Shown here: positions 1-60,956 of the stretch, one piece after another | How the letters are laid out: every line of letters starts with the position of its first letter | Numbering within the stretch: the first letter of the stretch is position 1 | From: Mytilus edulis | Lineage: Eukaryota | Direction: 5' to 3' | Assembly: GCF_963676685.1 (NCBI RefSeq) | Contig: NC_092353.1 | Span: forward strand, 27,156,001-27,220,000 | DNA: 64,000 nucleotides | The notes under the pieces: generated by a model | Told to the model about the DNA's origin: nothing | What the model saw: only the letters and a program-made list of their open reading frames with translations | Databases searched by the model: none | Made by a program: the position numbers and the translations under genes

Positions 1-486
1 TAATATTTAGAATTGATCTTATTTTGACATAAAATAACCATACTATTTGAATATATGAATGATTCTGGGAAGTTTTATTCTATCCCTTAATACCAGGGTT
101 TAGTCTTTCCATATTTGTTCTTAAGATATCGATTTAGTTACATTGATATAACAATATTTTTAGCGAAGTTCCTAGAATTTGCATGAATACGTGCAGATAG
201 GACCATATTGGTTATTTTTTCTTCATTTTTGTTCTTTTTTCTCTTTAATTCAAATACACTTTTAAATGACTTTCATATGAATAATAAGATAAAACTTGAT
301 CACATCCTTTCAAAACTAACATAGAAATCCCGTCATGGTGCTGGTACTTGCGGAATTAATTAACGATCGCGTATGTGCTTATTTCAAACAACATCCAAAT
401 AATTAATCAACTCCGTTTTAAAAGTGATGTTTCATTTCAAATATTTAGGTCTTTGCTAAATTTTCTATCCGACATTAAAATATAAT

Positions 487-31100: not shown

Positions 31101-33454
31101 GGAAAAAACTTAATCGGGGTAACAAACTAAAACTGAGGGAAAGGCATTAACTTATAGGTTGCACTTTGTAAATACAGCTGTTTCTCAAAACACGCCTCTT
31201 TTGGGGAGATCTTGAATATTCATAGAAAATTAATTTTGTTTACATACTGGTTCCCAGTTATGCTCTCTGTGTTCCATCTCACAGAGACATAACTTTTGAA
31301 TGTTACCAGTAAATATACATGTGCATATTGTTTACATTGAAATCTGTGATAACCTTTCATACGAGGTAAGGGTAGTTAAGAAAATTAGTGTTAGTTTAAA
31401 CTATGAGAATTCAGGGCATATAAACGTTGAAAATATGCCGCACAGCCCTATATTTTGACCTGTGAAAAAAATTGTGGTGGATATGAACTTTGAATTCTAG
31501 GAAAAGATTTTTTTTCAAAACTTCATAGTAAAAGTGGTACAGTTTTAGTCGTAAAAGGAGTTCATATGGAAAATTGCATTGTCAATATTTACAGAAATGC
31601 AACCTTTAGAGGAGAACAACGACACAACATTAAAATGTAACACACATGCACACAGAAACGAAATAAGCATTAGACAAAATCCGATGAAAAAACTAATATA
31701 ACATCAATACCAAATACATGAATTCGGGATAGAAAAGTACCGTGACACGTCTTATAGTAATGTGAATTCACATTCAAATATTTGAATGTTAGAAACTAGT
31801 TTTGAATGTTGAAAAATGAATGTTGAATGTTGAAAACGAATTATGAATTTTAAAAACCATTGTTGAAACGTTGAATGTTGAAATTTAAATGTTAAAACTC
31901 GAATGTTGAAAACTAATTTTGAATGTCAGAAACTAATTTTCAATGTTGAAAATTGCAACTAAGAGAAAACAAACGACACAACGGAAACAATGAAAACAAT
32001 GAAACAGTAGATGCTTTGTGCACTGCTTGTTATATGTCATTGTTGACTGCCTTTAATAAAGTAAAAGTTCACATGTCGAAGAAATTCTTGGCAACTAAAC
32101 ACTGCTTAGCTGGTTTGACTTTTCGAATGCGAATCCAGTTATGATTTTCAAAGTAAATAGAGACAAACACGTCAGTCTCGCGCTTATAAAACAAGGTTTA
32201 ATTCACAATTGTCTATGTAAGAAAATGCCCGTGCCAAGTCAGGAATATGACAGTTGTTTTCCATTCGTTTGATGTTTTAGAGATTTTGATTTTGTCTTTT
32301 GATTACAGACTTTTAGTTTTGAATATTCCTCGTAGTTCGGTATTTTTGTAATTTTACTTTTCATAGTACATTTTGTACGTTACATAATATTGTTCGTTGA
32401 CTTTTTAGATGCTTCATTAGCTTTTTTTATTTCGGTTTCAATACCTTTTGCAATCTGTTTATGTACATTCAATGAAACGCAAATATGGTGTTCCAATTCA
32501 TAAGCCTGTATCACTAGTATTAGGTTATACCTGAGACATACACTGTAATATACAATTTATTTGTCTGTGAATTATTAGTCAGGGTTTCGCTTTAGTAATT
32601 TCATCAAACTCATAGGAAAGAAATTATTTTGAAAAACTATTTATGCGTGTTTTGTTGGTTTTTTTTGTAAGGCTATTTAAGAAAATGCCTGTATCAAGTC
32701 AGGAATATGACAATTGTTGTCCATTAATTTTGTTTGAAGTGTTTTAGCTTTTGATTTTGTAGAGACTTTCCGTTTTTAATTTCCCTCGGTGTCCAGTATT
32801 TTTGTGATTTTACTGTTTGGCTATGATTTCCTTGCGGGCATCATTTCTTTGATTATCTTTATCAGTTATGCATTACCAACCGTGTGGGGCGGGGTAAACC
32901 TTATGGGTAAAGCAGGTCATTGATCATCCCTAGTAGTTACGCCCGTCAAGTTTTGAAAGCCAAAAAAAAAACCATACGTTTCAGGGCATTTTTTCCAAAA
33001 GGGCAGTAACAGCCAAAACCACCAGCTAGCTTTGCTGGGGGAATTTTAACTATAGTTATAACACAATGCATAATTTAATTCAACTTATATTGGGAAGTCA
33101 ACTTTTATCGAGGGAGGGTGTTTGTAAGTCTATTCCTAAAACGTACTTCATTCTCATTAAACTCCAATAACAAACTGTTTTTCTAAACGTTTTCTGAATT
33201 TCTATTTTAGGCAATATGCTTGTACTATTAAAAGACCATTTGCTGTCCGATATAACCCATACACACAAACTGTTGACGTACTTAACAACACTCGTTGTAT
33301 TGCCAATGCTGTTAGTGAATTACGTGGCGATCTGTGCATAGTAAGTGATGCACTCAGACGTTTACAACAGATAGAAATAGAGGAAGAGGAAGAATTAGAG
33401 GCAGAAAGAGAAGCAGAAACACCGAGAACTCCGAGACAAATCAAATCGAATTAA
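3881..33454 (+). CDS. TPH: Tryptophan 5-hydroxylase (biopterin-dependent aromatic amino acid hydroxylase), 13 coding exons, about 577 aa
   Basis: Exons 3881-4183, 7507-7623, 9457-9661, 10090-10196, 11925-11992, 13671-13721, 14348-14446, 15291-15337, 15533-15668, 29420-29546, 29797-29892, 30414-30547, 33211-33454 all have GT-AG ends and join in phase (1734 nt). Motifs: ACT domain ([11 protein letters not shown]...IESRRSRR), [24 protein letters not shown], iron ligands HELLGH and VEFG, RYNPYT. TPH-diagnostic YFFTVEFG (PAH/TH have YWF) and AGYL (PAH/TH have AGLL). Confidence 0.95.
7507..7623 (+). CDS. TPH: TPH exon 2 (start of ACT regulatory domain)
   Basis: [39 protein letters not shown]; AG/GT ends. 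Confidence 0.9.
9457..9661 (+). CDS. TPH: TPH exon 3
   Basis: [28 protein letters not shown]...; conserved IESR motif. Confidence 0.92.
10090..10196 (+). CDS. TPH: TPH exon 4
   Basis: [29 protein letters not shown]. Confidence 0.97.
10905..11310 (+). repeat. Interspersed repeat with terminal direct repeats; relatives at 37200-37285 and (minus) 63015-63190
   Basis: AATAAACTCATAGATAC.AGGATT.AAATTTTATA at both ends; shared GACTCATCAGTGA.GCTC and GAAGTTGAAGAGCATTGA segments. Confidence 0.6.
11925..11992 (+). CDS. TPH: TPH exon 5
   Basis: [22 protein letters not shown]. Confidence 0.96.
13671..13721 (+). CDS. TPH: TPH exon 6
   Basis: [17 protein letters not shown]. Confidence 0.96.
14348..14446 (+). 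CDS. TPH: TPH exon 7
   Basis: [32 protein letters not shown]. Confidence 0.96.
15291..15337 (+). CDS. TPH: TPH exon 8
   Basis: [15 protein letters not shown]. Confidence 0.96.
15533..15668 (+). CDS. TPH: TPH exon 9
   Basis: [45 protein letters not shown]. Confidence 0.97.
18621..18984. mobile_element. MITE with GGGCC termini (PIF/Harbinger-like)
   Basis: Imperfect TIR of about 33 bp: AGGGCCAAAATTAAAAATATGTTTGTTTCCCCT vs AGGGCCACATTTAAAAGAATGTCTGTTTCCCCT. Confidence 0.65.
18990..19247. repeat. Fold-back inverted repeat
   Basis: Arms of about 65 bp: TTACAGTTAATTTCC...GCTTGCTTGCTTTGTTTGTATA and TATACAAACAAAGCAAGCAAGC...GGAAATCAGCTGTAA. Confidence 0.7.
21355..22980 (+). mobile_element. HINE-like element carrying 35-bp (21910-22140) and about 160-bp (22430-22900) tandem arrays
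   Basis: AACCAGATGCTCCGCAGGGCGCAGC start; GCTATTGC at 21952/21986/22021/22056/22091/22126; AAAACTCCCAAAATCAATCC three times about 160 bp apart; (GAC)n near the 3' end. A related 5' end lies on the minus strand at 23880-24099. Confidence 0.7.
23121..23342 (-). pseudogene. LINE (CR1/L2-like) reverse transcriptase fragment
   Basis: [26 protein letters not shown]...RSITIGS matches the N-terminal RT domain pattern. Confidence 0.7.
23357..23718. repeat. Palindromic non-autonomous element (Crypton-like); truncated relative at 2330-2450 and similar architecture at 50470-50755
   Basis: Imperfect palindrome of about 150 bp centred on GCGCGGAAGCGC, followed by CCAATCAG and TAATTAT. Confidence 0.5.
25020..25300. 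promoter_or_regulatory. Candidate bidirectional promoter
   Basis: Local CpG-rich patch with CCGGAAA (ETS-like, minus, 25070-25076), ATTGG (CCAAT box, 25215) and TTTCCCGC (E2F consensus, 25290). Confidence 0.4.
25733..25904 (+). mobile_element. MITE, CAGTGGCGGATCC family, copy 1
   Basis: TIR CAGTGGCGGATCC / GGATCCGCCTATG; 5-bp flanks CTTTT/CTTTA. Confidence 0.7.
26222..26377 (-). mobile_element. MITE, same family, copy 2 (inverted); decayed copies at 27900-28038 and 28958-29030
   Basis: CATAGGCGGATCC...GGATCCGCCACTG with exact 5-bp TSD TTATG. Confidence 0.75.
29420..29546 (+). CDS. TPH: TPH exon 10 (iron-binding histidines)
   Basis: [42 protein letters not shown]. Confidence 0.97.
29797..29892 (+). 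CDS. TPH: TPH exon 11
   Basis: [32 protein letters not shown]. Confidence 0.97.
30149..30372. repeat. Local triplication of a core of about 48 bp in TPH intron 11
   Basis: CTGGACACATCATCAGTGTAACTGTAAGACCATAGTGAAC occurs three times. Confidence 0.9.
30414..30547 (+). CDS. TPH: TPH exon 12
   Basis: [44 protein letters not shown]. Confidence 0.96.
31156..31605. mobile_element. Kolobok-like MITE inserted into another repeat
   Basis: TIR AGGTTGCA...TGTAAAT / ATTTACA...TGCAACCT with TTAT/TTAG flanks (degenerate TTAA). Confidence 0.55.
31780..31952. repeat. Degenerate TGAATGTTGAAAA minisatellite
   Basis: Repeated GAATGTT units. Confidence 0.7.
33211..33454 (+). CDS. TPH: TPH exon 13 (tetramerisation helix and acidic tail, stop)
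   Basis: [24 protein letters not shown]...[35 protein letters not shown]. Confidence 0.96.
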
Positions 33455-34540: not shown

Positions 34541-35859
34541 GTTTAACTTGCATGACCAACACGACCGATACCACATATGCAGCAGGATGTTCTTTACCTT
34601 CTATCTAGAGCAAACTGAAACCTAGAATATTTTATCGACATATATGGACAATTTTCAACAGACAATATGCGATCTTTTTTTACTCAACAGTGCACCTTTT
34701 TTATCAGCTTGTTCCATTATATGTTTGAGGCATTCATGGTCTTATAAATGTAAAAAGGAAGCTGGAACTATCATTGAACTTGATGATTATCGCTATAAAG
34801 ATGATGCTTTCTAGCTGAATCAATCAATCAATGTTCTTCCGACTATGCTGATTGCATCTTTTACATTTAACATACATAATAAAATATCAAAGATGCCGTC
34901 ATGTCTGCTTCATATCTTGAGTACCAATTAGAAATTGACAATGAGGGTTGTTTGAGAACTAAAATAAAATATATCATTTCTAATTTCCTATTGTAAATGT
35001 GAAAACATTTTTTTCATTTTAAACTTTAACATTTGGTCAAGTTTATTGAAGAGAGGCGGGAATACCAAAGAGATAATTTATATTATATCATCACAAGTCG
35101 ATTACAAACCACCAATACTATGGCATAAAATGATATAAAAAAAGGTCCAATAGACAAACAACAGTTTAAGAGTGTATTTCAAGCGAGAGGTTTTGCAAGC
35201 TATAATATCAGATTTAATCCACCATTTTCTACGTAAGAAAATGCCTGTACCAAGTCGGTAATAAGACAGTTATTATCCATTTGTTTGATGTGTTTTGATC
35301 TTTGGTTTTGCCCTTTGATTACGTACTTTCCGTTTTGAATTTTTCTCTGATTTTTTTTACTTTTGCAACACAGAGACATAACATAGAAAACTGAGGACTA
35401 AAAACAGAAACCCAAAGGAAACGAAAGGGTAAGCAGTTCCTGATCCACACGCGAAACCCGTTGAGTTGCTTCTATAATAGTAAAACAGTCAGTGATGAGT
35501 ATCATTCGGTGATGTCACATTTACCTTCGATATCTTTAGTGAAAGGACATCATCTATATCGCCGAAAGTGAAGTTAACAGACAATTAAAGCTCCTTTTCA
35601 TCATTCATAGGTATCATGGCTTCATGAATTATACCTAATACATTGTATGAATGAAAGGATAGTCTGCAAAAAGAGGAGAACAGTTATAGTTAGAAAATTT
35701 GCATCACCAATGGTTAATGAATGTGGTGATGTCCTAAACAATTATGACAACATTCATAAAAGCCAGGGATGTATAAGAACCGAAACAACTCAAATGCTAT
35801 TTGATCAAAAAGGACTTAAAAATAATACTTGTAGCTAAATTCATGTTCAATTTGCCCGA

Positions 35860-37141
35860 CAGACTTGCTCTCAATAATGACGACTTCAGTATGTATATTA
35901 ATGAAATTTATCCTGTTGAACTTACTTTAAATAAAGCTAATACTAACAATGACCACTGCCCTTTTTTCGATCTTGATATCTATATCACTAATGGAAAGCT
36001 GAATACTAAAATTTATGATAAAAGGGATGATTTTTCATTTCCTATCGTTAATTATCCGTTTTTAGATGGTGACGTTCCCTTGTCACCATCTTACGGTGTT
36101 TATATATCTCAACTTGTACGATTCGCTCGTGTATGTAACAATGTTTTAGATTTTAACGAGAGAAATTTATGTATTACTGAAAAATTATTACACCAGGGTT
36201 TTCGATATCACAAACTAGTCAAAACATTTACTAAATTTTATCCTCGGTATAAAGACATCATTCGTAAATATAGCTCAACATGCAGACTTCTAATACGTTC
36301 AGGTATTTCACATCCAATTTTTTATGGTAATATTCTTTATAAAGCACAAAGGTGTCAGTATTCACCTCAGAAACTTACAAAACCTTTAAATAGACTTATT
36401 AAGAAGGGATATAATTACGATACTGTTGTCAAGTCATTAAAGATTGCATATTTTGGCGTTAATATTGAGTCACTGATAAGGTCTTTGCATCGGAACTAAA
36501 CACATTATTTTTTTTAAAAAAACAGTTGTTGGCATGACACGGGTTATGTTCTTCTCATATATGTTATGATGGTATGATACTAAACCCCTAACGGGAAGGA
36601 TTGTGCCTGATGTTCATATGATGAAATCATAATCTTTCAGTCAGTTTAATTGAAGTCTGGAGCTGGCATGTCAGTTAACTGCTAGTAGTCTGTTGTTATT
36701 TATGTATTATTGTCATTTTGTTTATTTTCTTTGGTTACATCTTCTGACATCAGACTCGGATTTCTCTTGAACTGAATTTTAATGTGCGTATTGTTATGCG
36801 TTTACTTTACTAAATTGGTTAGAGGTATAGGGGGAGGGTTGAGATCTCACAAACATGTTTAACCCCGCCGCATTTTTGCGCCTGTCCCAAGTCAGGAGCC
36901 TCTGGCCTTTGTTGGTCTTGTACTATTTTAATTTTAGTTTCTTGTGTACAATTTGGAAATTAGTATGGCGTTCATTATCACTGGACTAGTATATATTTGT
37001 TTAGGGGCCAGCTGAGGGACGCCTCCGGGTGCGGGAGTTTCTCGCTGCATTGAAGACCTGTTGGTGACCCTCTGCTGTTGTTTTTTATTTGGTCGGGTTG
37101 TTGTCTCTTTGACACATTCCCCATTTCCATTCTCAATTTTA
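35860..37141 (+). mobile_element. 5'-truncated Penelope-like retroelement (RT C-terminus intact, ORF to 36499) plus 3' tail
   Basis: LALNNDDF...YPVELTL...FFDLDI...TKIYDKRDDFSFPIVNYPFLDGDVPLSPSYGVYISQLVRFAR is the PLE RT palm/thumb pattern; truncated just after the catalytic DD. Decayed relatives at 14590-14850 (+), 34700-35000 (+) and 38990-39310 (-). Confidence 0.8.
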
Positions 37142-47458: not shown

Positions 47459-49187
47459 AACAAGAGGCTCTCAAGAGCCTGAATCGCTCACCTGAATTTT
47501 TTTGGTTTAATCTCTCATCAATGATTATTTTGGCTTTTCAATTTATTTAAATGTTCTTTGAATCGTCCTATTTTCTTCAAAAGCAAAAAAAAATCATTTT
47601 CTCCTATGTTCTATTTTAGCCATAGGAGCTATGTTTCTTGACATACAAGGAAATGAAATATAAAATTTATACTAGATACTCTGAAACTCTGAAACTCATT
47701 TAGCCTAAGTTTGGCTGAAATTGATACAGCAGTTTCATAAGAGAAGATTTTTTAAAGTAAGTCAACATGATGAACAAATTGTGAAAAAAGTCTTTAAAGG
47801 GCAATAACTCCTAAAGAGGTCAATTGACAATTTTGGTCAAATTGACTTATTTGTAGATCTTACTTTGCTGATCATATTTGCTGTTTACAGTTTATCTTTA
47901 TCTATAATAATATTCAAGATAATGACCAAAAACTGCAAAATTTCATTAAAATTACCAATTAAGTGGCAGCAACCCAACAATTGGATGTTTGATTCATCTG
48001 AAAATTTCAGGGCTGATAGATATTGACCTAATGAACATTTTTACTCCATGTCAGATTTGCTCTTAATGCTTTCGTTTTTGAGATATAAGCCAAAAACTGC
48101 ATTTGACCCCTATGTTCTATTTTAAGTAACGGCGGCCATGTTTTTTGACGGATCAAAAATCAAAGCACACACTTTGTGCAGGATAATCTAAGGAACAACC
48201 ATGCTAAGTTTTAACCAAATCCATTCAGTAGTTTCAGAGGAGAAGATTTTTTAAAGTTAGCAAATATGATGAACAAATTGTGAAAAATTGTCATTAAAGG
48301 ACAATAACCCCTTAAGGGGTCAATTGACAATTTTGGTCATATTAACTTATTTGTAGATCTTACTTTGCTGATCTTTTTTGCTCTTTACAGTTTATCTTTA
48401 TCTATAATGATATTCAAGATAATGACCAAAAACTGCAAAATTTCCTTAAAATTACCAATTAAGTGGCAGCAACCCAACAATTGGATGTTTGATTCATCTG
48501 AAAATTTCAGGGCTGATAGATATTGACCTAATGAACATTTTTACTCCATGTCAGATTTGCTCTTAATGCTTTCGTTTTTGAGATATAAGCCAACAACTGC
48601 ATTTGACCCCTATGTTCTATTTTAAGTAACGGCGGCCATGTTTTTTGACGGATCAAAAATCAAAGCACACACTTTGTGCAGGATAATCTAAGGAACAACC
48701 ATGCTAAGTTTTAACCAAATCCATTCAGTAGTTTCAGAGGAGAAGATTTTTTAAAGTTAGCAAATATGATGAACAAATTGTGAAAAATTGTCATTAAAGG
48801 ACAATAACCCCTTAAGGGGTCAATTGACAATTTTGGTCATATTAACTTATTTGTAGATCTTACTTTGCTGATCTTTTTTGCTGTTTACAGTTTATCTTTA
48901 TCTATAATAATATTCAAGATAATGACCAAAAACTGCAAAATTTCCTTAAAATTACCAATTAAGTGGCAGTAACCCAACAATGGTTTGTTTGATTCATCTG
49001 AAAATTTCAGGGCTGATAGATCTTGACCTAATGAACATTTTTACTCCATGTCAGATTTGCTCTAAATGCTTTCGTTTTTGAGATATAAGCCAAAAACTGC
49101 ATTTGACCCCTATGTTCTATTTTAAGTAACGGCGGCCATGTTTTTTGACGGATCAAAAATCGAAGCGCACATTTTGTGCAGGATATA
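47459..49187 (+). repeat. HINE-like element with about three near-identical 500-bp tandem units
   Basis: AAACAAGAGGCTCTCAAGAGCC start; AAAATTTCAGGGCTGATAGA at 48001, 48501 and 49001. Confidence 0.85.
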
Positions 49188-52617: not shown

Positions 52618-54262
52618 TTAGTTTTTTTTTTATAATAATTACAAAACTAAGAACAAAAGATAATCAGATTCTTAGAGAATACAAACTCAGAGTTACAGTG
52701 GAATTTAATCATTGCTACTGTATAAACTTGTAGCATTTTCTGACTTGGAGATGTGATTGTTGAATATTTTGTCTGTAAATATAACATTTGTCAGAGAGGG
52801 TTCCCACTCACCTCTATTGACGTATCTAGCATTGGTTTTGCCATCAGTGGTAGCAGTATTGTATTCCTAAAGGCCTTAGATTATATATCCTCTCATTAAC
52901 AATGGGTTAACTGGTTACAAAATAAAGCTTTCCTTCCAAAAAGTATTTTTAATTTTGACCACTCATGTGCAAACAGTTTTTGGGACCGTTGAAATGACAA
53001 GAACAATTGGAAAAAATGGTAAAAACTGCCAATAAGTTGATTGAAAAAGTTTATGAGTAAATTGGAAAAAAAACTCTCGCTAGTCAAAAAAAAAAAAAAA
53101 AAATCATAAAAACACAAGACGAAGAAAAGACATCTTCATTACAAAAAGAAGAAAAAATGTGAGTATAAAAAAAAATCTAAATCACTGTACATGCATATTA
53201 AAATCTACACGAACCCCAAAAAACGTCAATATGTAAGATATCTATAGGGTTTCAATGGTTGAAAAAATGAAGAATCTTTATTATTTTTGTTAAAATAAAA
53301 AAAGTGCCTAGGAATTATCCTTTCGTATATACCAGATGCCATCTTCACCAACCAAGGATAACGATACAGCCCCCTTCTCTCTACCTGATGGACCTGGTTG
53401 GTAGAAGGAGGCTGGATCGTTACCCTTGGCTAGATAAGATGACAAGATGCCTCTCTGCGTTGTTTATGGTTATCCTTTTGTTTGAAAAAAAAATATTAGA
53501 TAATATTCAGATTAGATTTGGTATAGTTAAGAACATTGTTGATGAGTCATGTGTATTTAACAAATAAATTGCAATATGATCTGACGTCTAGTTTTAATTG
53601 TCAAACATTAAGTTGATGTAAACCATTTGATTTTTAGGAAGGGGGTTAGTTTGTCCTGATTTTTTTTAGTTGTAATCTCTGTCCTGCATTTTTATTTTTC
53701 ACTCTATTCGGTCCTACCTTTTTATTAGTTTATCTTGACTTTATTTGCATAAATTGTCATCCTGCGCCTTTTTTATAAGTTGCTCAGCCTGCCTTAATTT
53801 ATTGCCCAAAACTCATGTCCTGCTTTTTTTTTTAGACCTCCCTCCCCTATAAAATCAAATTGTAGCTCCCTACAGTATGCATGCAATTACATGTTCTTAC
53901 AAAGGCGCTTGGGCCATGTGCCCCTTTATAATTAGTTCTTTCCTATTCATGCTTGTCGCTGCAAAAAAAAAAAAAAAAATAGCAAGCGCGTTAATTTATT
54001 TTTGATTGAGATAAAATGGTATAAAAACTGAAGTCACTGAAAGGAAATAGAACCCCCATTCAGACAAATCCACATACATAGCTTTTGCTTTATTTAAAGT
54101 TACTGCAACTGTTTTCTCTGGTTACCCTCAACTCTGACAGTATTGTATCAATATCATAATGACAATACAAGGATTTTCCGCCAATGAAAACAGGTAAGAA
54201 TTTTACCCAAAAATCTAAAAATAACTCTTATCAAAAAATAAACTACCCGATTTCCACCCGTC

Positions 54263-55140: not shown

Positions 55141-58100
55141 ATGCCTTCATCATTAAACAGAAGTCGCCCGCTGAGACAAACCTGTCCTATAACTAGAAAG
55201 GAAAGCGAACAGTTATTTGATCTTTTTCTTCATCTGCAATCAAATCCAACAGAAGAGGAAAAACCGACAAATGATAATTGTTTGAATAGCGTTGAAAAAG
55301 AGGACTGTAACTGTGTTGAGGACCTTCCTGAATTCAAGCGTTCTGATAGTTACAGGAAAGCTACACAAAGATTTTCGCTTGAGGATGTTGTAGAAACCAT
55401 GACTTTTAAGAAAGAGGATTATGATCACAAGAAATATAAGTCTCTGCCAATTGACAGAACATCGAAGATCACTCATACTGAAAACAAATCAAAGTTGCAA
55501 GTAGGGAGAAAAAATAAACTTAATAGACAGAAATCTGGCACTGTTCCGTCGTCTGATAGTGACAATAACACAAGTCCACCTGAAAACCGAAAGAAAAAAA
55601 GTGTCGTGCAAAGGACTAAGGAAAGAATCATATTCATACTCTGGAAAGATAAGAAACATGGTGATAAAAATATATCTAAGGAATCTAAAAGGACACCGAC
55701 CCCTCATCATGGTAATGATAGTGTACTGAAAGTTAACAACAATAAAGGTCAAATATCAACCACTTCAAACGATGCTGAGATTATCGAACGAAAGAAAAAT
55801 AATATTAGTATCAAAGCAAGAACGTCTGAAAGTAAGTTTATTATCTTATTTTGCTTATATAACAATGTTACATACAGATTTCAATTATATAAGTACAATA
55901 CGTGGAAAAGAAAGATGTGCTTTGTCCGAGGCTTTGTCAATGAAATATAAAAGTAGATATCATACATAATGTGTACTTAGGATATATTTTTTATAGCCTA
56001 AAGGTTGTAAGTACATCTAAATGCACACAAACACGTTTTCTTGAAGTACAATATATTATGTCTTTATGTATGCGAAATCAAAGCGAATGATGTAATCGTA
56101 TTTCACTCCTAAAATTCAAATTCAAATTAGAAAATAATTTCATTGTATTTTGCTTTGGTTAAAAGCACATGCAGGGTTAGACTTTTTATTTATATATTCT
56201 AAGTATTTGATACCATATAACTTCCAGATTCCAAAGGATCACATTCAAACCAACAAAGTCCCACTCAGAACATGGCACCAAATTCTAAGTCGCCCGCGCG
56301 TGACAGAAGATACAAAACTCAAGTCTCACGTGAAGAAATTACTAATATGTTCGAAAAATGCCTATCGTCTGCCGAAGTTAAAGAGGAACCATACACATTT
56401 CCCGCTAAAAGGATCCACAAGAGAAAAGACTTCAGTCCAGGTAGAGATATTTCATTTGCTGATGGAATTAAAGATAAGAAATCTGGACTTAAATTAGACC
56501 TAGGTCCTTTTACTAATGGGTTTAAAGTAGAATCACATACAACAGTAATTCAGGAGGACAAAACCATAGTAAATGATGGAACAACGCGGACTTTGTTAAC
56601 TGATAGAAGGACAATTGAGAGAACGTTCTCTTTGGAAGTGGATGGTTGCAATGATGATGAAGTTGATGGTCCAATGGGTTCTACTTTGAAGGAGGTAGAT
56701 CGATTACAAACAGGTATATATCTGAACATGTTTTGGTATCAAGTAAAGCCTAATAAAATGAGAATTCTACTTCGTAAGTAGTCCTGCTAAATTTGTATAT
56801 TATTTCAAAGCGTCTAAGAGATGTAAGGGACATAGAATTAAACATCAATCCAACACTTGCTTATATGTTTATTGACTTATCATGGCTACAATGGAGGCCA
56901 GGTAATGCTTAAAGTAATCATTATAATCTACTATCCTCTTTTGTTTGGCCATATGCAGTCTTACACTTAACATTTGTACATTTCATTCTATAACGTCTCC
57001 TTCATTTGTACAGGAGACGAATCACAAGAGCCTTTAACATCGTCAGAGCAGGAAAAAATGATAGAAGAAATAGCTAGAAGACTAAATAGAATAGCTGACG
57101 ACTGTGTCCAGCGCATGGGAGCTGGAGGAACTTCACCTCTCCAAGGCGCTACTGCTGGACCTTTGTTGTCACCCGCGTCTCAAGGTATGGTTATGCTACA
57201 TATAAGCCCCTCTCCGATTTAGTGTTTCCTGTCTCTCTACCTCCTTTGAATGCCTACCCTCACACTTTAAATGTGCATTTTGGGTGAAGTACCGAAAATC
57301 CATATATTTAAGGTCTAGCACCGTTTAAAGACTAGAACCGTCCCATATATAGTTTTTCTTGTAAAATTTTTAGAAGATATTTAAACTGCCTACCTTTCTT
57401 TCTTTTTTTTGGGGGGGGGGGGGGGGCGTCTTATATTATCATTTTTTTATATCACCCTTTTACTCTTTGACTTTCAACGTAGTTCTTATGACGACACTTA
57501 AAACAAATCAGTTACTAATACAAGAAAAACATTTTTAATACTTGTGGAAAATATGCAATTATGCAGTAGTACACAGTCAGCTTTTGAAAGTTGTATTCAC
57601 CATCTAAAAACGCTTGTATCGTAATTTTATGTGCGTTATTTTTATAAATTAAATGTTTACATGAAATATTTGTATATTAAACTATACTATTCAACTGAAA
57701 TTTAATCTAAATATTATAAAATCGATGAATCAAAAAATATTTTAGTCATGTGCATACATTGCATACATAATATGTGAGGCGTTAAAATATTTCCTTTAAA
57801 AAAATCCACATCCCAGCTGGTATTGATCTGGAAAATATTTGTGTCACAATTACATCAGCTTTTCTCTTAATTGGAAAAACCAAGGTTTTCGGAGAAGTTT
57901 GAAATACTGGGACGTCCGATTCCAATTCTGTTAATAAATTATCCCTATTTCATTATGAATGCAAAATTACCATAATGGTTTATTAAAAAAACGTAAATCA
58001 AAATTGTAGATTTTGTTGAAAATCAATTGTTAAGCAATCCTACAACCCCCCCTTTTTTTCCCCATCATTTGCAATTCATCTAGCTCTTATCCTTTTGCTT

Positions 58101-60144
58101 AGTATTCGAATATCTAATGAGCAGTAGATCAGTGACATATAAATCAACGAATTATGAGAGATTAACCCAGTATTTTCATTAATCTTCTGTTATATCGTGT
58201 TAGCGGTTGTACATTTAATTACGATATTTATGATAGATTAACCAAATCGATTATCAACGTATAATATTCATAGCTAAAGGTGAACAATCGACATGGTTAT
58301 AAAATCTTCTCAAAGAGGAACATTTTACCTTCTATAATACCATCGTGCATTGATCTTTATTAAGTGATTACTTATTGTTTTAGGTAGGAAGCTTGCCAAA
58401 GACTTAGTGGATGAACTAAGAAAGGAAGGAGATAGATTATCCCGAGAGGTATAAATAGCTTTTAACCAAATTTGCTTACTGACCTCTGAAAATGTTATCT
58501 TTACATCCGCTATGATAAATTATTTTGTTTGAACGAGAAGATTTTACTGCAGTCTACGTTTTAATGAAACTTAAAACAAGTCATTTAAAAATGATAAAGG
58601 ACTTTTGTGCATACACAATGTATGCGAAATACAAATGGTATTAGTTTTCTCAGGAAAAAAGCCAACACGAAGTACGTGTAAAATGAAGGAATAAAATGTT
58701 ATAAAACACATCAGACGACGACATACAGTGGAGGTCTTGTTCAAAATAAGACAACGATATAGAGAGGATCGATTGCCACCCTTAAATTTCATTTCTCAAT
58801 TGTTTTAAATAAATAAGATAGATGTCATTAAGGATATTAGTTCTGTTTATAAACTTTAAGGTAAAAGGTATATTTGACAACCATAAAAAAATGTTTTATT
58901 TCCATCCTTTTTGGCCTAGCTCCCTCTCAAGAGAATATTCCTTGCGCGGACTTGTATTTCAATCATGTCGACTTTTAAAGATACGAAGTTAAAACGCAAA
59001 ATGTCCAAAAATACATGGCAACAGTTGTAAATGTATTTGTCTTTTACCACAGGGTTTATACAAATTTTTTTTTTTTTTAATTAGAATTGAAATAATTTTT
59101 TGGTTTTATCTTTGATAAAAATTCCTTCAATAGTACAACTAGAAAATTATTGCATTTCAGATGAATTTGCCTGCTAATCTTTTACCGATAGTAATGGACA
59201 TGGTCAAGCAAATAACCTACGACCATTTCAAAGACTTAGTGAAGAAGGCTTTGTGCGAGACGATAGGATGGGACCAGGTTGCTTTGTATTTTTATATTTC
59301 TAAAGCAGCTATTGTGATGGCCGGGGCTGGTGGAAGTATTGCCTGTAAACTAAAGGACATGGCGGTTAGATATTTCCACGAGGAATTATCTCCATGGATA
59401 TACGATAGAGGTGGATTGGTATGTTTTATACAACTTTTTATAAGCTTCCTTAACCAGAATAATGCAGTCGTTATATGCGCTGCTCTCCGATTGCTATAAA
59501 TTACACTGCATAATTATATATAGGGTTATTGCATGGATCCTGGTGAAAAATGTCTCACGATTTTAAGAGTGCCAATGTATATTCTACGATGGATAATAAT
59601 AGCATTATAAGCACTGGTGCAAAATGATAAAATATTTCAAGCCAATTTTTCCTTTCGTTCTGTGGGAAATGTCGTATGTTGTAATTAAAAGAATAGTTTC
59701 GACTCGCGATTAGGAGAGGAAATGTGCTTTTTTCCAGCCCCCGATTCAATGTTAAGAAAACGTACGGTAAAGTGAATAATACTTGTAGCGTGACAATTCA
59801 TTTTTGGGTCCTCTTTGTGGAGGCCTTATGCGACTTCTGGCGCGGAGAGAATTAAGGTAAGGTTGTGGTCCTCGCTTTAACTATTTCAATTTCTTTGAAC
59901 GATCAGAGACAGCTATTTAGATTTAAACAAAAAGTTGCACATTATAGATACACTTGTATTAAGTTGTAACTACTTACTCATCTCTGATGTTATTCCTTAT
60001 ACATAATGAAAATAATGTATACATTGACTTGGTCGGGTTATTGTCTTTTTGAACTATTTGATATATTCCCCATTGACATTCACAATCCTATTATTTGTAT
60101 TTTAGGAAACTATGCTAGAAGAAACAGATTCGGAGGTTGACTGA
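55141..60144 (+). CDS. BCL2L14: Bcl-2 family protein, Bcl-G (BCL2L14)-like, 6 coding exons, about 569 aa
   Basis: Exons 55141-55831, 56228-56713, 57014-57184, 58384-58448, 59161-59418, 60106-60144 join in phase (1710 nt). BH3-like IARRLNRIADD and LVDELRKEGDRL, BH1-like IGWDQVAL, BH2-like PWIYDRGGL, no TM anchor, C-terminal EVD* as in vertebrate Bcl-G. Orthology is not proven. Confidence 0.8.
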
Positions 60145-60366
60145 CAAAGGCTGTGATTAGTAAGAATTTGAACTTATCCTAAAACTGATATATCAGTGCT
60201 CTACAGTTCTGATAACGGGACAACTGCATATGTCTGCGATCTCCGTCGGTCAAAGAGTAACCTGAATAATGTGACATTGAGACATTTAACTATGATTGTT
60301 TAGTATTGAGCCCGTATTTTACTCAGAGTGATGTTGTATGGCTTTATGACAATGGAAATCCGCGGC

Positions 60367-60525
60367 ATTTTTCTCAGCGATGGTGTATGGCATTAAAGTT
60401 ATAGCAATAATTTTTCTCAGCGATGGTTTATGGCATTAAAGTTATAGCAATCATTTTTCTCAGCGATGGTTTATGGCATTAAAGTTATAGCAATCTTGTT
60501 TCTCAGCGACGCTGTATGACTTTAA
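60367..60525. repeat. 43-bp tandem repeat in the Bcl-G-like 3' UTR
   Basis: CTCAGCGA at 60373, 60416, 60459 and 60502. Confidence 0.9.
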
Positions 60526-60956
60526 GTCTATAGTTTTTATTTTATGTGCAATATTTTTGATGATCTCAGCTATTTGAGCGAGACTGTATGTTATTTGTTT
60601 GTGTATTTCACATTTATGTGTATAATTTATTTGATTTAATATATGCCTTCACTGTGATGATTTAAAATGTATAAAAGAGAAATATGTACAAATGATATTG
60701 GATTTGTTTGAATAAATCCTATAAAACACTCGGATGAATTGACTTAATGTAAACCAAGGGGAAAATTATTTTACTTCTATTATTTACCAAATGTTGATGG
60801 TTGCATTTCTCATCTCTATTTCATAAATCGAGAATTCGAAGAATATGTGAATAAATTATAAAATAATTGTTAAATTTTCATTGATTTATATTAATCACTA
60901 CAAAACGCTGACCTGTATATTGGACACAGAAATTGAAACGTGATGTTGGAGCATGG

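Follow-up and report, generated by a model that had tools for sequence, protein, structure and literature searches.

How the extrinsic and intrinsic routes to apoptosis are connected in molluscs has been asked in studies of Mytilus (PMC3634015), oyster (PMC5550854) and squid (PMC9389742), which report having detected no BH3-only proteins or no BID. An evolutionary survey, in its accessible text, dates BID to cartilaginous fish at the earliest (PMC8998228). The locus described here lies in a window of 64,000 nucleotides of Mytilus edulis DNA, the whole stretch that was analyzed. It encodes an unannotated Bcl-2-family protein in which a first-pass annotation had recognized a candidate caspase-activated switch, raising the question of whether it could provide such a connection.

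The gene model built from the window comprises six coding exons, with introns that all conform to GT-AG, and predicts an open protein of 569 amino acids (Table 1). When the product was aligned with NCBI LOC127725859 of M. californianus, 502 of 572 columns were identical. All five exon joints were present in RNA reads or contigs; the joint of exon 1 to 56228 was found in both raw reads and contigs, and a single 1,650-nt RNA contig covered the transcript from exon 1 to the last joint. Exons 1 and 2, on whose splicing to the BH-encoding exons the first-pass annotation depended, are therefore joined to them in RNA. Exons 2 and 3 are symmetric, but no joint that would skip either of them was present in eight RNA runs of low depth, and skipping was set aside.

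Table 1. Location of coding exons and of predicted or conserved elements of the mussel gene, numbered from the first letter of the window.
Feature	Position	Strand	Remarks
Coding exon 1	55141..55831	+	Met1 to residue 230; mostly disordered; carries alpha1 and the basic helix
Alpha1 / pseudo-BH4 helix, predicted	55192..55233	+	Residues 18-31, pLDDT 71-84
Basic amphipathic helix KKKS...KERI	55585..55650	+	Conserved in 27/46 homologs; helix 153-177, pLDDT 82-86
Coding exon 2	56228..56713	+	Phase 1-1; disordered loop with caspase-type sites at its end
LEVD-G	56632-56646	+	D369; initiator-caspase-type by sequence; kept in all close mytilid relatives
DEVD-G	56656-56670	+	D377; effector-caspase-type by sequence; in 5/5 close relatives as D[DE][VI]DG
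KEVD-R	56689-56703	+	D388; KEVVR in M. californianus, absent from the other four close relatives
Coding exon 3	57014..57184	+	Phase 1-1; contains BH3-A helix, predicted alpha2 of the Bcl-2 fold
BH3-A core	57070-57105	+	Exon 3
Coding exon 4	58384..58448	+	Degenerate BH3-B inside
BH3-B core	58404-58439	+	Exon 4
Coding exon 5	59161..59418	+	Alpha3-alpha8 core, BH1-like and BH2
BH1-like W-D-Q, without Arg	59263-59295	+	Exon 5
BH2	59392-59418	+	Exon 5
Coding exon 6	60106..60144	+	Acidic tail, ends DSEVD-stop; no transmembrane anchor
3' UTR	60145..60760	+	RNA contigs reach about 60760

The three caspase-type motifs and both BH3-like motifs were located exactly where they had first been placed. The proposed cluster of three sites held for LEVD-G and DEVD-G, which are conserved, but not for KEVD-R, which was rejected as a third caspase site because it is unconserved and carries an unfavourable Arg after the Asp. 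Conservation was assessed in 46 homologs from molluscs, a brachiopod, nemerteans, a leech and hemichordates, those that bear names having uninformative ones only. A D-G site stood just before the exon-3 helix in 38 of these, including 13 of 13 members of the gene's own bivalve clade, as expected of a functional switch in the first-pass annotation; the other eight had no D-G in the segment preceding BH3-A. The sites were found in bivalves, gastropods, cuttlefish, a leech, Lingula, Tubulanus and Glandiceps. When this segment was defined as −62 to −14 from the BH3-A Leu, a choice made after inspection of the alignment and applied to homologs that share kinship, it held 69 D-G in 2,208 residues versus 71 in the 18,058 residues upstream (31 versus 3.9 per 1,000 residues), a density eight times that of the remaining N-terminal sequence. 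At most 41 were obtained in 2,000 composition-preserving shuffles.

The residues around the 69 sites were also patterned. P3 was Glu in 27, P4 was Asp in 26 and Val, Leu or Ile in another 26, P2 was Val, Ile, Pro or Thr in 39, and basic residues at P2-P4 were depleted (seven). Where two sites were present (24 homologs), the first was mostly initiator-type, with Leu, Val or Ile at P4 in 15, and the last mostly effector-type, with Asp at P4 in 17; the ordered pair of initiator-type then effector-type occurred in 13 of the 46 homologs and in at most two under shuffling. These preferences and their order fit the consensus of the two caspase classes. They argue against the D-G motifs being some other conserved linear feature, such as a flexible turn, an Asp isomerisation timer or a binding motif, and isomerisation would select neither P3 Glu nor P4 Asp. 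Such a feature is compatible with the residues following 265 Asp (69 Gly versus 14 Ser and 8 Ala), where D-G alone is enriched and not D-S or D-A; nevertheless we regard it as highly improbable.

Cleavage at D369 or D377 is predicted to yield an acidic C-terminal fragment (pI about 4.9) of 200 or 192 residues, respectively, and a basic N-terminal fragment; the fragment of about 190 residues originally suggested was near in size and is corrected to these values. Post-cleavage N-myristoylation, as for tBID, was rejected: its pattern followed 20 of 69 D-G sites versus 262 of 1,160 background Gly, and was absent at D369 and D377.

An equal partnership of the two BH3-like helices was not supported. 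BH3-A matched the strict BH3 pattern in 43 of 46 homologs, whereas BH3-B is degenerate (strict in 11, loose in 38), placing the constraint on BH3-A far above that on BH3-B. BH3 motifs in alpha2 stay conserved in anti-apoptotic Bcl-2 members too, for folding reasons. Exon 3 scored 12.3 bits against Pfam BID (PF06393; curated cut-off 25, profile positions 73-97, E 0.13), and the profile was weakly matched at BH3-A by 6 of 54 family members (best E 0.002); a phmmer search of exon 3 against the PDB returned designed coiled coils only. In profile comparison it was helix B, not helix A, that aligned to the BH3/alpha2 of Bcl-xL. As judged by sequence BH3-B is the core BH3; in the models it probably forms an extra helix.

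In AlphaFold models the alpha1 slot is filled by an N-terminal helix and the alpha2 slot by BH3-A. The caspase-type sites would then sit, like those of BID and BFK, in the loop that joins alpha1 to alpha2, with about 380 residues predicted between alpha1 and BH3-A. The modelled order of alpha1, caspase loop and BH3 as alpha2 thus fits BID and BFK, in keeping with the switch first suggested. The full-length model (pTM 0.46) was superposed at residues 17..567 on Bcl-xL 1..197 (Z 12.8, rmsd 3.4, 131 aligned), and likewise on BFK 6..162 (Z 12.0, rmsd 3.6, 123 aligned) and BID 13..195 (Z 6.2, rmsd 4.1, 117 aligned), the three alignments beginning at model residues 12-17; helix placement was read from the first and last aligned residues. 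With a truncated model, residues 43..197 aligned to Bcl-xL 82..196 (Z 13.8, rmsd 2.2, 109 aligned), and the alignment began with helix A on alpha2 of Bcl-xL, BAK, MCL-1 and BCL-2. Model offsets set L51 on the BH3 Leu of these four proteins. The profile match to Bcl-xL reached E 2e-9; Foldseek gave no E under 0.001, and all matches listed were of the Bcl-2 family.

The first 365 residues, initially described as disordered, are indeed mostly disordered, but contain the predicted alpha1 and the conserved basic helix; the latter may be a localisation signal that a caspase cut would take away. The alpha1 motif was present in 29 of 46 homologs (one match spurious; at most four in shuffles). It was absent in Pinctada, Crassostrea and an eight-member clam clade of the gene's own orthologues, where the sites are still kept, and had decayed in 10 of 13 own-clade members (P0005 is N-truncated and the P0027 match is spurious). 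Since the motif is missing in site-keeping bivalve orthologues, an alpha1 latch would not be universal.

Taken as a whole, the protein has the predicted alpha1-alpha8 bundle, superposable on Bcl-xL, with BH3 and BH2 present. The BH1 Trp is kept in 37 of 46 homologs, the BH2 Trp in 42 and the second BH2 Gly in 45, while the hallmarks of pro-survival and BAX/BAK proteins, the Arg of W-G-R in BH1 and a C-terminal transmembrane anchor, are lacking. The Arg position is occupied by Gln (27), His (12), Glu (3) or Tyr (2), and in 46 of 46 homologs the last 25 residues are hydrophilic (hydropathy at most 0.7). The tail ends in [DE]x[DE][LVI]D in 28 of 46; this motif was at no C-terminus in the accessible part of the PMC11463336 supplement.

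These data suggest a BCL-G/BNIP5-like Bcl-2 protein in which a caspase cut likely unlatches BH3-A from an alpha1 clamp to give a pro-apoptotic relay in the style of BID and BFK, a reading that we hold to be rather probable, though far from assured. Judging by the sequence signature, an initiator caspase would cut LEVD-G and effector caspases DEVD-G. On the precedent of BID and BFK, the fold would loosen once alpha1 is lost, BH3-A would flip out, and the freed BH3-A would bind BAK/BAX or pro-survival Bcl-2 proteins; other Bcl-2 proteins are the expected partners because the protein's own BH1 has no Arg to pair with the BH3 Asp. More speculatively, the spare exon-4 helix might plug the protein's own groove or replace BH3-A as alpha2, and TPR-clamp proteins might be bound by the acidic tail, as they are by that of human BCL-G. 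A role as feedback amplifier, as first envisaged, is likely, and is put no more firmly because the nearest mammalian look-alikes, BCL-G and BNIP5, are reported to be non-apoptotic or anti-apoptotic.

One alternative is that the protein has a non-apoptotic job in trafficking, secretion or chaperone/TPR networks, of the sort reported for mammalian BCL-G. Caspases would then cut it just to end that job, to detach the basic N-terminal segment, or to tag the fragments for degradation via the new N-terminal Gly and C-terminal Asp. In the accessible parts of the respective papers, a mouse Bcl-G knockout revealed no apoptotic role and Bcl-G bound TRAPP (PMC3481120), and the last five residues of human BCL-G bound TPR-clamp proteins (PMC6212638). 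The conserved acidic tail, the strict Gly after Asp and the persistence of sites in orthologues with a decayed alpha1 would agree with such a job; however, all along a loop of 400-700 aa the sites concentrate in the roughly 60 residues next to BH3-A, and BH3-B is under much looser constraint than BH3-A. We consider this explanation improbable, though not negligible.

The relatives of the gene range from snails to acorn worms, and most keep caspase-type sites just before BH3. In a tree built by a quick method without bootstrap and containing no vertebrate member, the family formed a clade apart from the mussel's own Bcl-xL/Mcl-1-like genes; no vertebrate member was among the 30 homology matches looked up by name. 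Against Pfam Bcl-2 the family scored 18.4 bits (exon 5) and 16.2 bits, below the cut-off of 31.4, and the eight Pfam matches in the mussel's own genome did not include the gene; this would account for its having been overlooked. ETS or PNT matches, sought on contig C10 as signs of ETV6/7-like microsynteny, were not found, which was uninformative; vertebrate BCL2L14 lies in the ETV6 neighbourhood.

The nearest named ESM clusters were BCL2L14 (similarity 0.89, a lead only), and the top neighbour of the whole protein was a chordate cluster (0.96) with CF222 (C6orf222/BNIP5) in 16% of its members. These neighbours lend weight to a second alternative, in which BH3-A exposed by cleavage would be protective or damping in net effect, engaging BAK selectively and parking it on MCL-1, in the manner of BNIP5 and BCL-G, as a caspase-tuned brake. 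In its accessible text, a preprint describes two BH3-like motifs in BNIP5 and finds that the BH3s of BNIP5 and BCL-G block BAK-dependent death, and does not mention cleavage (bioRxiv 10.1101/2022.07.24.499430). Yet none of the 54 family members matched Pfam CF222 at E 0.5, BH3-A weakly matches Pfam BID, and an amplifier is a more parsimonious role than a brake for a protein turned on by effector caspases; we therefore think a brake unlikely. Pfam searches of the mussel genome gave no CF222 match and one weak BID match, elsewhere.

Under the favoured relay reading, the sequence makes this gene a strong candidate for the BID-like link that studies of molluscs have failed to find, and a named candidate with exact predicted cut sites is thereby available for the extrinsic-intrinsic connection. 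The three unstudied oyster Bcl-2 candidates of PMC5550854 could include an orthologue. No earlier description of the family was found in a search of the non-subscription literature. We tentatively raise a wider possibility, itself rather doubtful, that the family is an invertebrate BID-type relay (initiator cut, effector cut, then a freed BH3 leading to mitochondrial permeabilisation, with the spare BH3 helix swapping in) that arose in the bilaterian ancestor and gave rise to BCL-G, BNIP5, BFK and BID. If true, the unmasking of a BH3 by cleavage would have been invented in that ancestor, as the family occurs in both lophotrochozoans and hemichordates.

Among known systems, Bcl-xL and Bcl-2 gave the best fold and profile matches, but the mussel protein lacks their BH1 Arg and transmembrane anchor and falls in a separate clade. 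Caspase cuts in the alpha1-alpha2 loop turn Bcl-xL and Bcl-2 pro-apoptotic too. BNIP5/C6orf222 likewise is long and disordered, carries two BH3-like motifs and has a BH3 similar to that of BCL-G; it is described as BH3-only and anti-apoptotic, whereas in the mussel protein the Bcl-2 core is complete and CF222 gives no match. With BFK and BID it shares a predicted pseudo-BH4 alpha1, a caspase-site loop, a BH3 alpha2 and a core without transmembrane anchor. According to PMC8814693, BID and BFK both have alpha1 as a pseudo-BH4, carry their caspase sites in the loop that leads to alpha2, and have Lys or Arg in place of the BH1 Trp at the start of alpha5; the BFK BH3 printed there is one that BH3-A resembles. 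Unlike both, the mussel protein has a loop of about 380 residues instead of tens, an extra helix B, and keeps the BH1 Trp and BH2; activation by cleavage is shown for BID and BFK and is a prediction here. BCL-G/BCL2L14 has the same long N-terminal region, BH3 and BH2, acidic, Hsp70/90-like C-terminal motif and lack of an anchor, with 12 residues after BH2 in both and a BH3-to-BH2 spacing of 96 in human versus 93 from mussel helix B. It differs in length (327 versus 569 residues), and the mussel protein keeps the BH1 Trp and adds the stricter helix A and the conserved pair of caspase-type sites before the core; a review of BCL-G mentions cleavage once, for BID/BFK. A cleavage-gated protein may thus have been the ancestor of mammalian BCL-G, for which no settled role has emerged. 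In layout and acidic tail the mussel sequence resembles BCL-G and BNIP5 rather than BID itself.

The six coding exons of the gene, separated by introns that are all GT-AG, encode 569 aa. Mytilus californianus has the nearest named protein, 'uncharacterized LOC127725859' (98% across exon 5, 502/572 columns overall), which identifies the window as that of a Mytilus mussel. The first-pass annotation had placed caspase-type motifs ahead of two BH3-like helices, and its motif positions match the six-exon model. All five joints were supported by raw RNA reads, with 1-4 of them for each joint in a run, and again by contigs from four more runs (presumed RNA), and a single 1,650-nt contig covered exon 1 through the last joint, confirming that exons 1-2 are spliced to the BH exons. 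No exon-skipping joint was found among the RNA-read and contig joints listed, which are of low depth. The gene is polymorphic; the LEVDG and DEVDG codons were unchanged among the variants listed.

Positions of features in the window (slash, putative cleavage position)
Feature	Position	Strand	Remark
Last exon, biopterin-dependent aromatic amino acid hydroxylase	33161-33454	+	PF00351, E 2.5e-11
240-codon ORF	35777-36499	+	resembles a retroelement fragment by eye; no good Pfam match
Three near-identical copies	~47800-49050		spacing ~500 bp
Short repeated element	53646-53765		attracts partial RNA reads of other origin, in the hundreds
Coding exons 1-6	55141-55831, 56228-56713, 57014-57184, 58384-58448, 59161-59418, 60106-60144	+	gene model
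Basic amphipathic helix	55585-55650		kept in 27/46 homologs
Predicted beta-hairpin	~56535-56625		immediately 5' of first site; P0001 residues 334-363
LEVD/G	56632-56646		D369
DEVD/G	56656-56670		D377
KEVD/R	56689-56703		D388
9-nt in-frame deletion allele	57029-57037		close to the exon 3 start; seen in two runs
Short tandem repeat	60360-60520		inside 3' UTR of gene

Searched with a profile, 1.84 billion cluster representatives yielded 111 matches. The 55 long matches (the remainder being mostly fragments of one exon) and the window model made a set of 56, reduced to 46 by removal of four close mytilid relatives (P0001-P0004), the N-truncated P0031 and P0112, and P0069, P0073, P0074 and P0108, in which the exon-3 helix (BH3-A) was absent or misaligned. 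Among 30 proteins checked by name, those with names, all of them uninformative, were bivalve (Pecten, Mizuhopecten, Pinctada, Crassostrea, Mya, Dreissena, Potamilus) and gastropod members (Littorina, Haliotis, Gigantopelta, Elysia, Physella, Candidula), and others from cuttlefish, leech, Lingula, two nemerteans and two hemichordates. A quick tree placed the gene within a 13-member bivalve clade (SH-aLRT 98), with the mussel Bcl-xL-like and Mcl-1-like genes outside it. A second family member lies on the same contig (C10:17,899,257-17,906,414, - strand; L002-L004) and has a similar exon layout: alpha1-like and basic helices in a long exon 1, an exon 2 ending DVEVD/G, an xEVD/G ahead of a BH3-like exon 3, and a BH1/BH2 exon. 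Loci L006-L013 of this genome, among them the Bcl-xL-like L006 and L007 and the Mcl-1-like L008, are at C2:96.88 Mb, C4:59.33 Mb, C10:34.07 Mb and C7:3.16 Mb.

In five close relatives the first two sites were conserved as LE[IV]DG and D[DE][VI]DG, one fragment starting at the first site; KEVDR was not kept, and the proposed third site is not supported. Across the 46 proteins, a 48-residue pre-BH3 stretch whose last position is 14 before the BH3-A Leu held 69 D-G in 2,208 aa, versus 71 in 18,058 aa upstream and a mean of 24.7 (maximum 41) in shuffled stretches, counts that are descriptive because the stretch was picked after the alignment was viewed and the sequences are related. At least one D-G was present in 38/46 proteins and at least two in 24/46, in a linker that otherwise aligns poorly; eight lacked D/G in this stretch, three of them having D/S instead. 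Each of the 13 proteins in the bivalve clade that contains the gene retains at least one site. Basic residues were depleted around the 69 sites, with Glu at P3 in 27, Asp at P4 in 26, V/L/I at P4 in 26 and V/I/P/T at P2 in 39. Where there were at least two sites, P4 was L/V/I at the first in 15 of the 24 proteins and Asp at the last in 17, and this ordered pair occurred in 13/46 (at most 2 in shuffles). We take the order to be an initiator-type, then effector-type caspase signature. The D/G motifs are very probably caspase sites under selection. N-myristoylation of the new N-terminus after cleavage was unsupported.

BH3-A fits the strict pattern in 43/46, with Ala, Leu, Gly/Ala and Asp nearly invariant; BH3-B of exon 4 is degenerate (strict 11/46, loose 38/46). 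Sequence profiles and AlphaFold models differ on which helix occupies alpha2. The profiles aligned helix B, not A, to the Bcl-xL BH3 because B adjoins the core without a break. In the models, placement was read from the first and last aligned residues of structural alignments. A natural 201-aa fragment (pTM 0.65) aligned residues 43..197 to Bcl-xL 82..196, and the offsets presumably align the Leu of helix A with the BH3 Leu of Bcl-xL, BAK, MCL-1 and BCL-2. The best-ranked matches were ligand-bound Bcl-xL (Z 13.3-13.8; apo forms ~11.6-11.8), which weakly suggests a groove position for helix B. Helix B occurs alone in Dreissena P0108 and P0074, the former also with an alpha1-like helix, and the compact relative P0116 has helix A alone, directly before the core, in a BFK-like layout with three D/G sites; thus, either helix can be alpha2.

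The confident parts of the full-length model (pTM 0.46) were helices 18-30, 153-177 and 403-429 and the core. Its alignments to Bcl-xL, BAK, BFK and BID start at model residues 12-17, which puts the model's N-terminal helix in the alpha1 slot; its LLEFFL presumably fits the BH4 signature. An alpha1 motif, by a pattern devised after the sequences were viewed, was scored in 29/46, one spurious.

The predicted order of alpha1, a loop with caspase sites and BH3 alpha2 matches BID and BFK, in which cleavage and alpha1 loss release the BH3 (PMC8814693, available part). By analogy with BID and BFK, cleavage would probably expose BH3-A. The role of a cleavage-activated pro-apoptotic relay is slightly favoured, and killing as the net effect is less secure than BH3-A exposure. 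An alpha1 latch is harder to reconcile with Pinctada, Crassostrea and eight clam-type orthologues, in which the motif, clear in Mytilus and Pecten, is not clear though the sites are kept. Counted against a pro-apoptotic relay are mouse Bcl-G, a TRAPP binder described as not pro-apoptotic (available part of PMC3481120), and BNIP5, also with two BH3-like motifs, which with BCL-G blocks BAK-dependent death (available text of bioRxiv 10.1101/2022.07.24.499430). A role as a classic pro-survival receptor appears unlikely given the absence of a TM anchor and of the BH1 Arg, which also make the fixed BH3-A Asp better explained by binding of other family members.

The available parts of PMC3634015, PMC5550854 and PMC9389742 report a failure to find BH3-only proteins or BID in mussel, oyster and squid, and PMC8998228 has BID first appearing in cartilaginous fish. 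BCL-G is unmentioned in PMC11463336. No prior description of the family was found in the literature covered, which took in neither subscription papers nor one of the supplements. Of the parts, loop cleavage, two BH3 motifs and an acidic tail are already known; their combination and invertebrate range appear new.

The likeness to BID and BFK is one of predicted mode of action; assignment to BID itself failed, Pfam BID falling below cut-off and the BH1 Trp being retained. That to BCL-G is one of layout and feature similarity; the neighbours by ESM features, as leads only, were BCL2L14, BID and a chordate cluster in which some members carry CF222. The acidic C-terminal tail of 28/46 homologs parallels that of human BCL-G, through which TPR-clamp proteins are bound (PMC6212638, available part). 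A cut N-fragment would end xEVD (56632-56670), a form identical to the natural C-terminus (60127-60141), and both ends could bind TPR-clamp proteins. Twelve residues follow BH2 in BCL-G and in the window protein, and the human BH3-to-BH2 distance of 96 (PMC10244440 section 6) agrees with helix B (93) but not with helix A (138).
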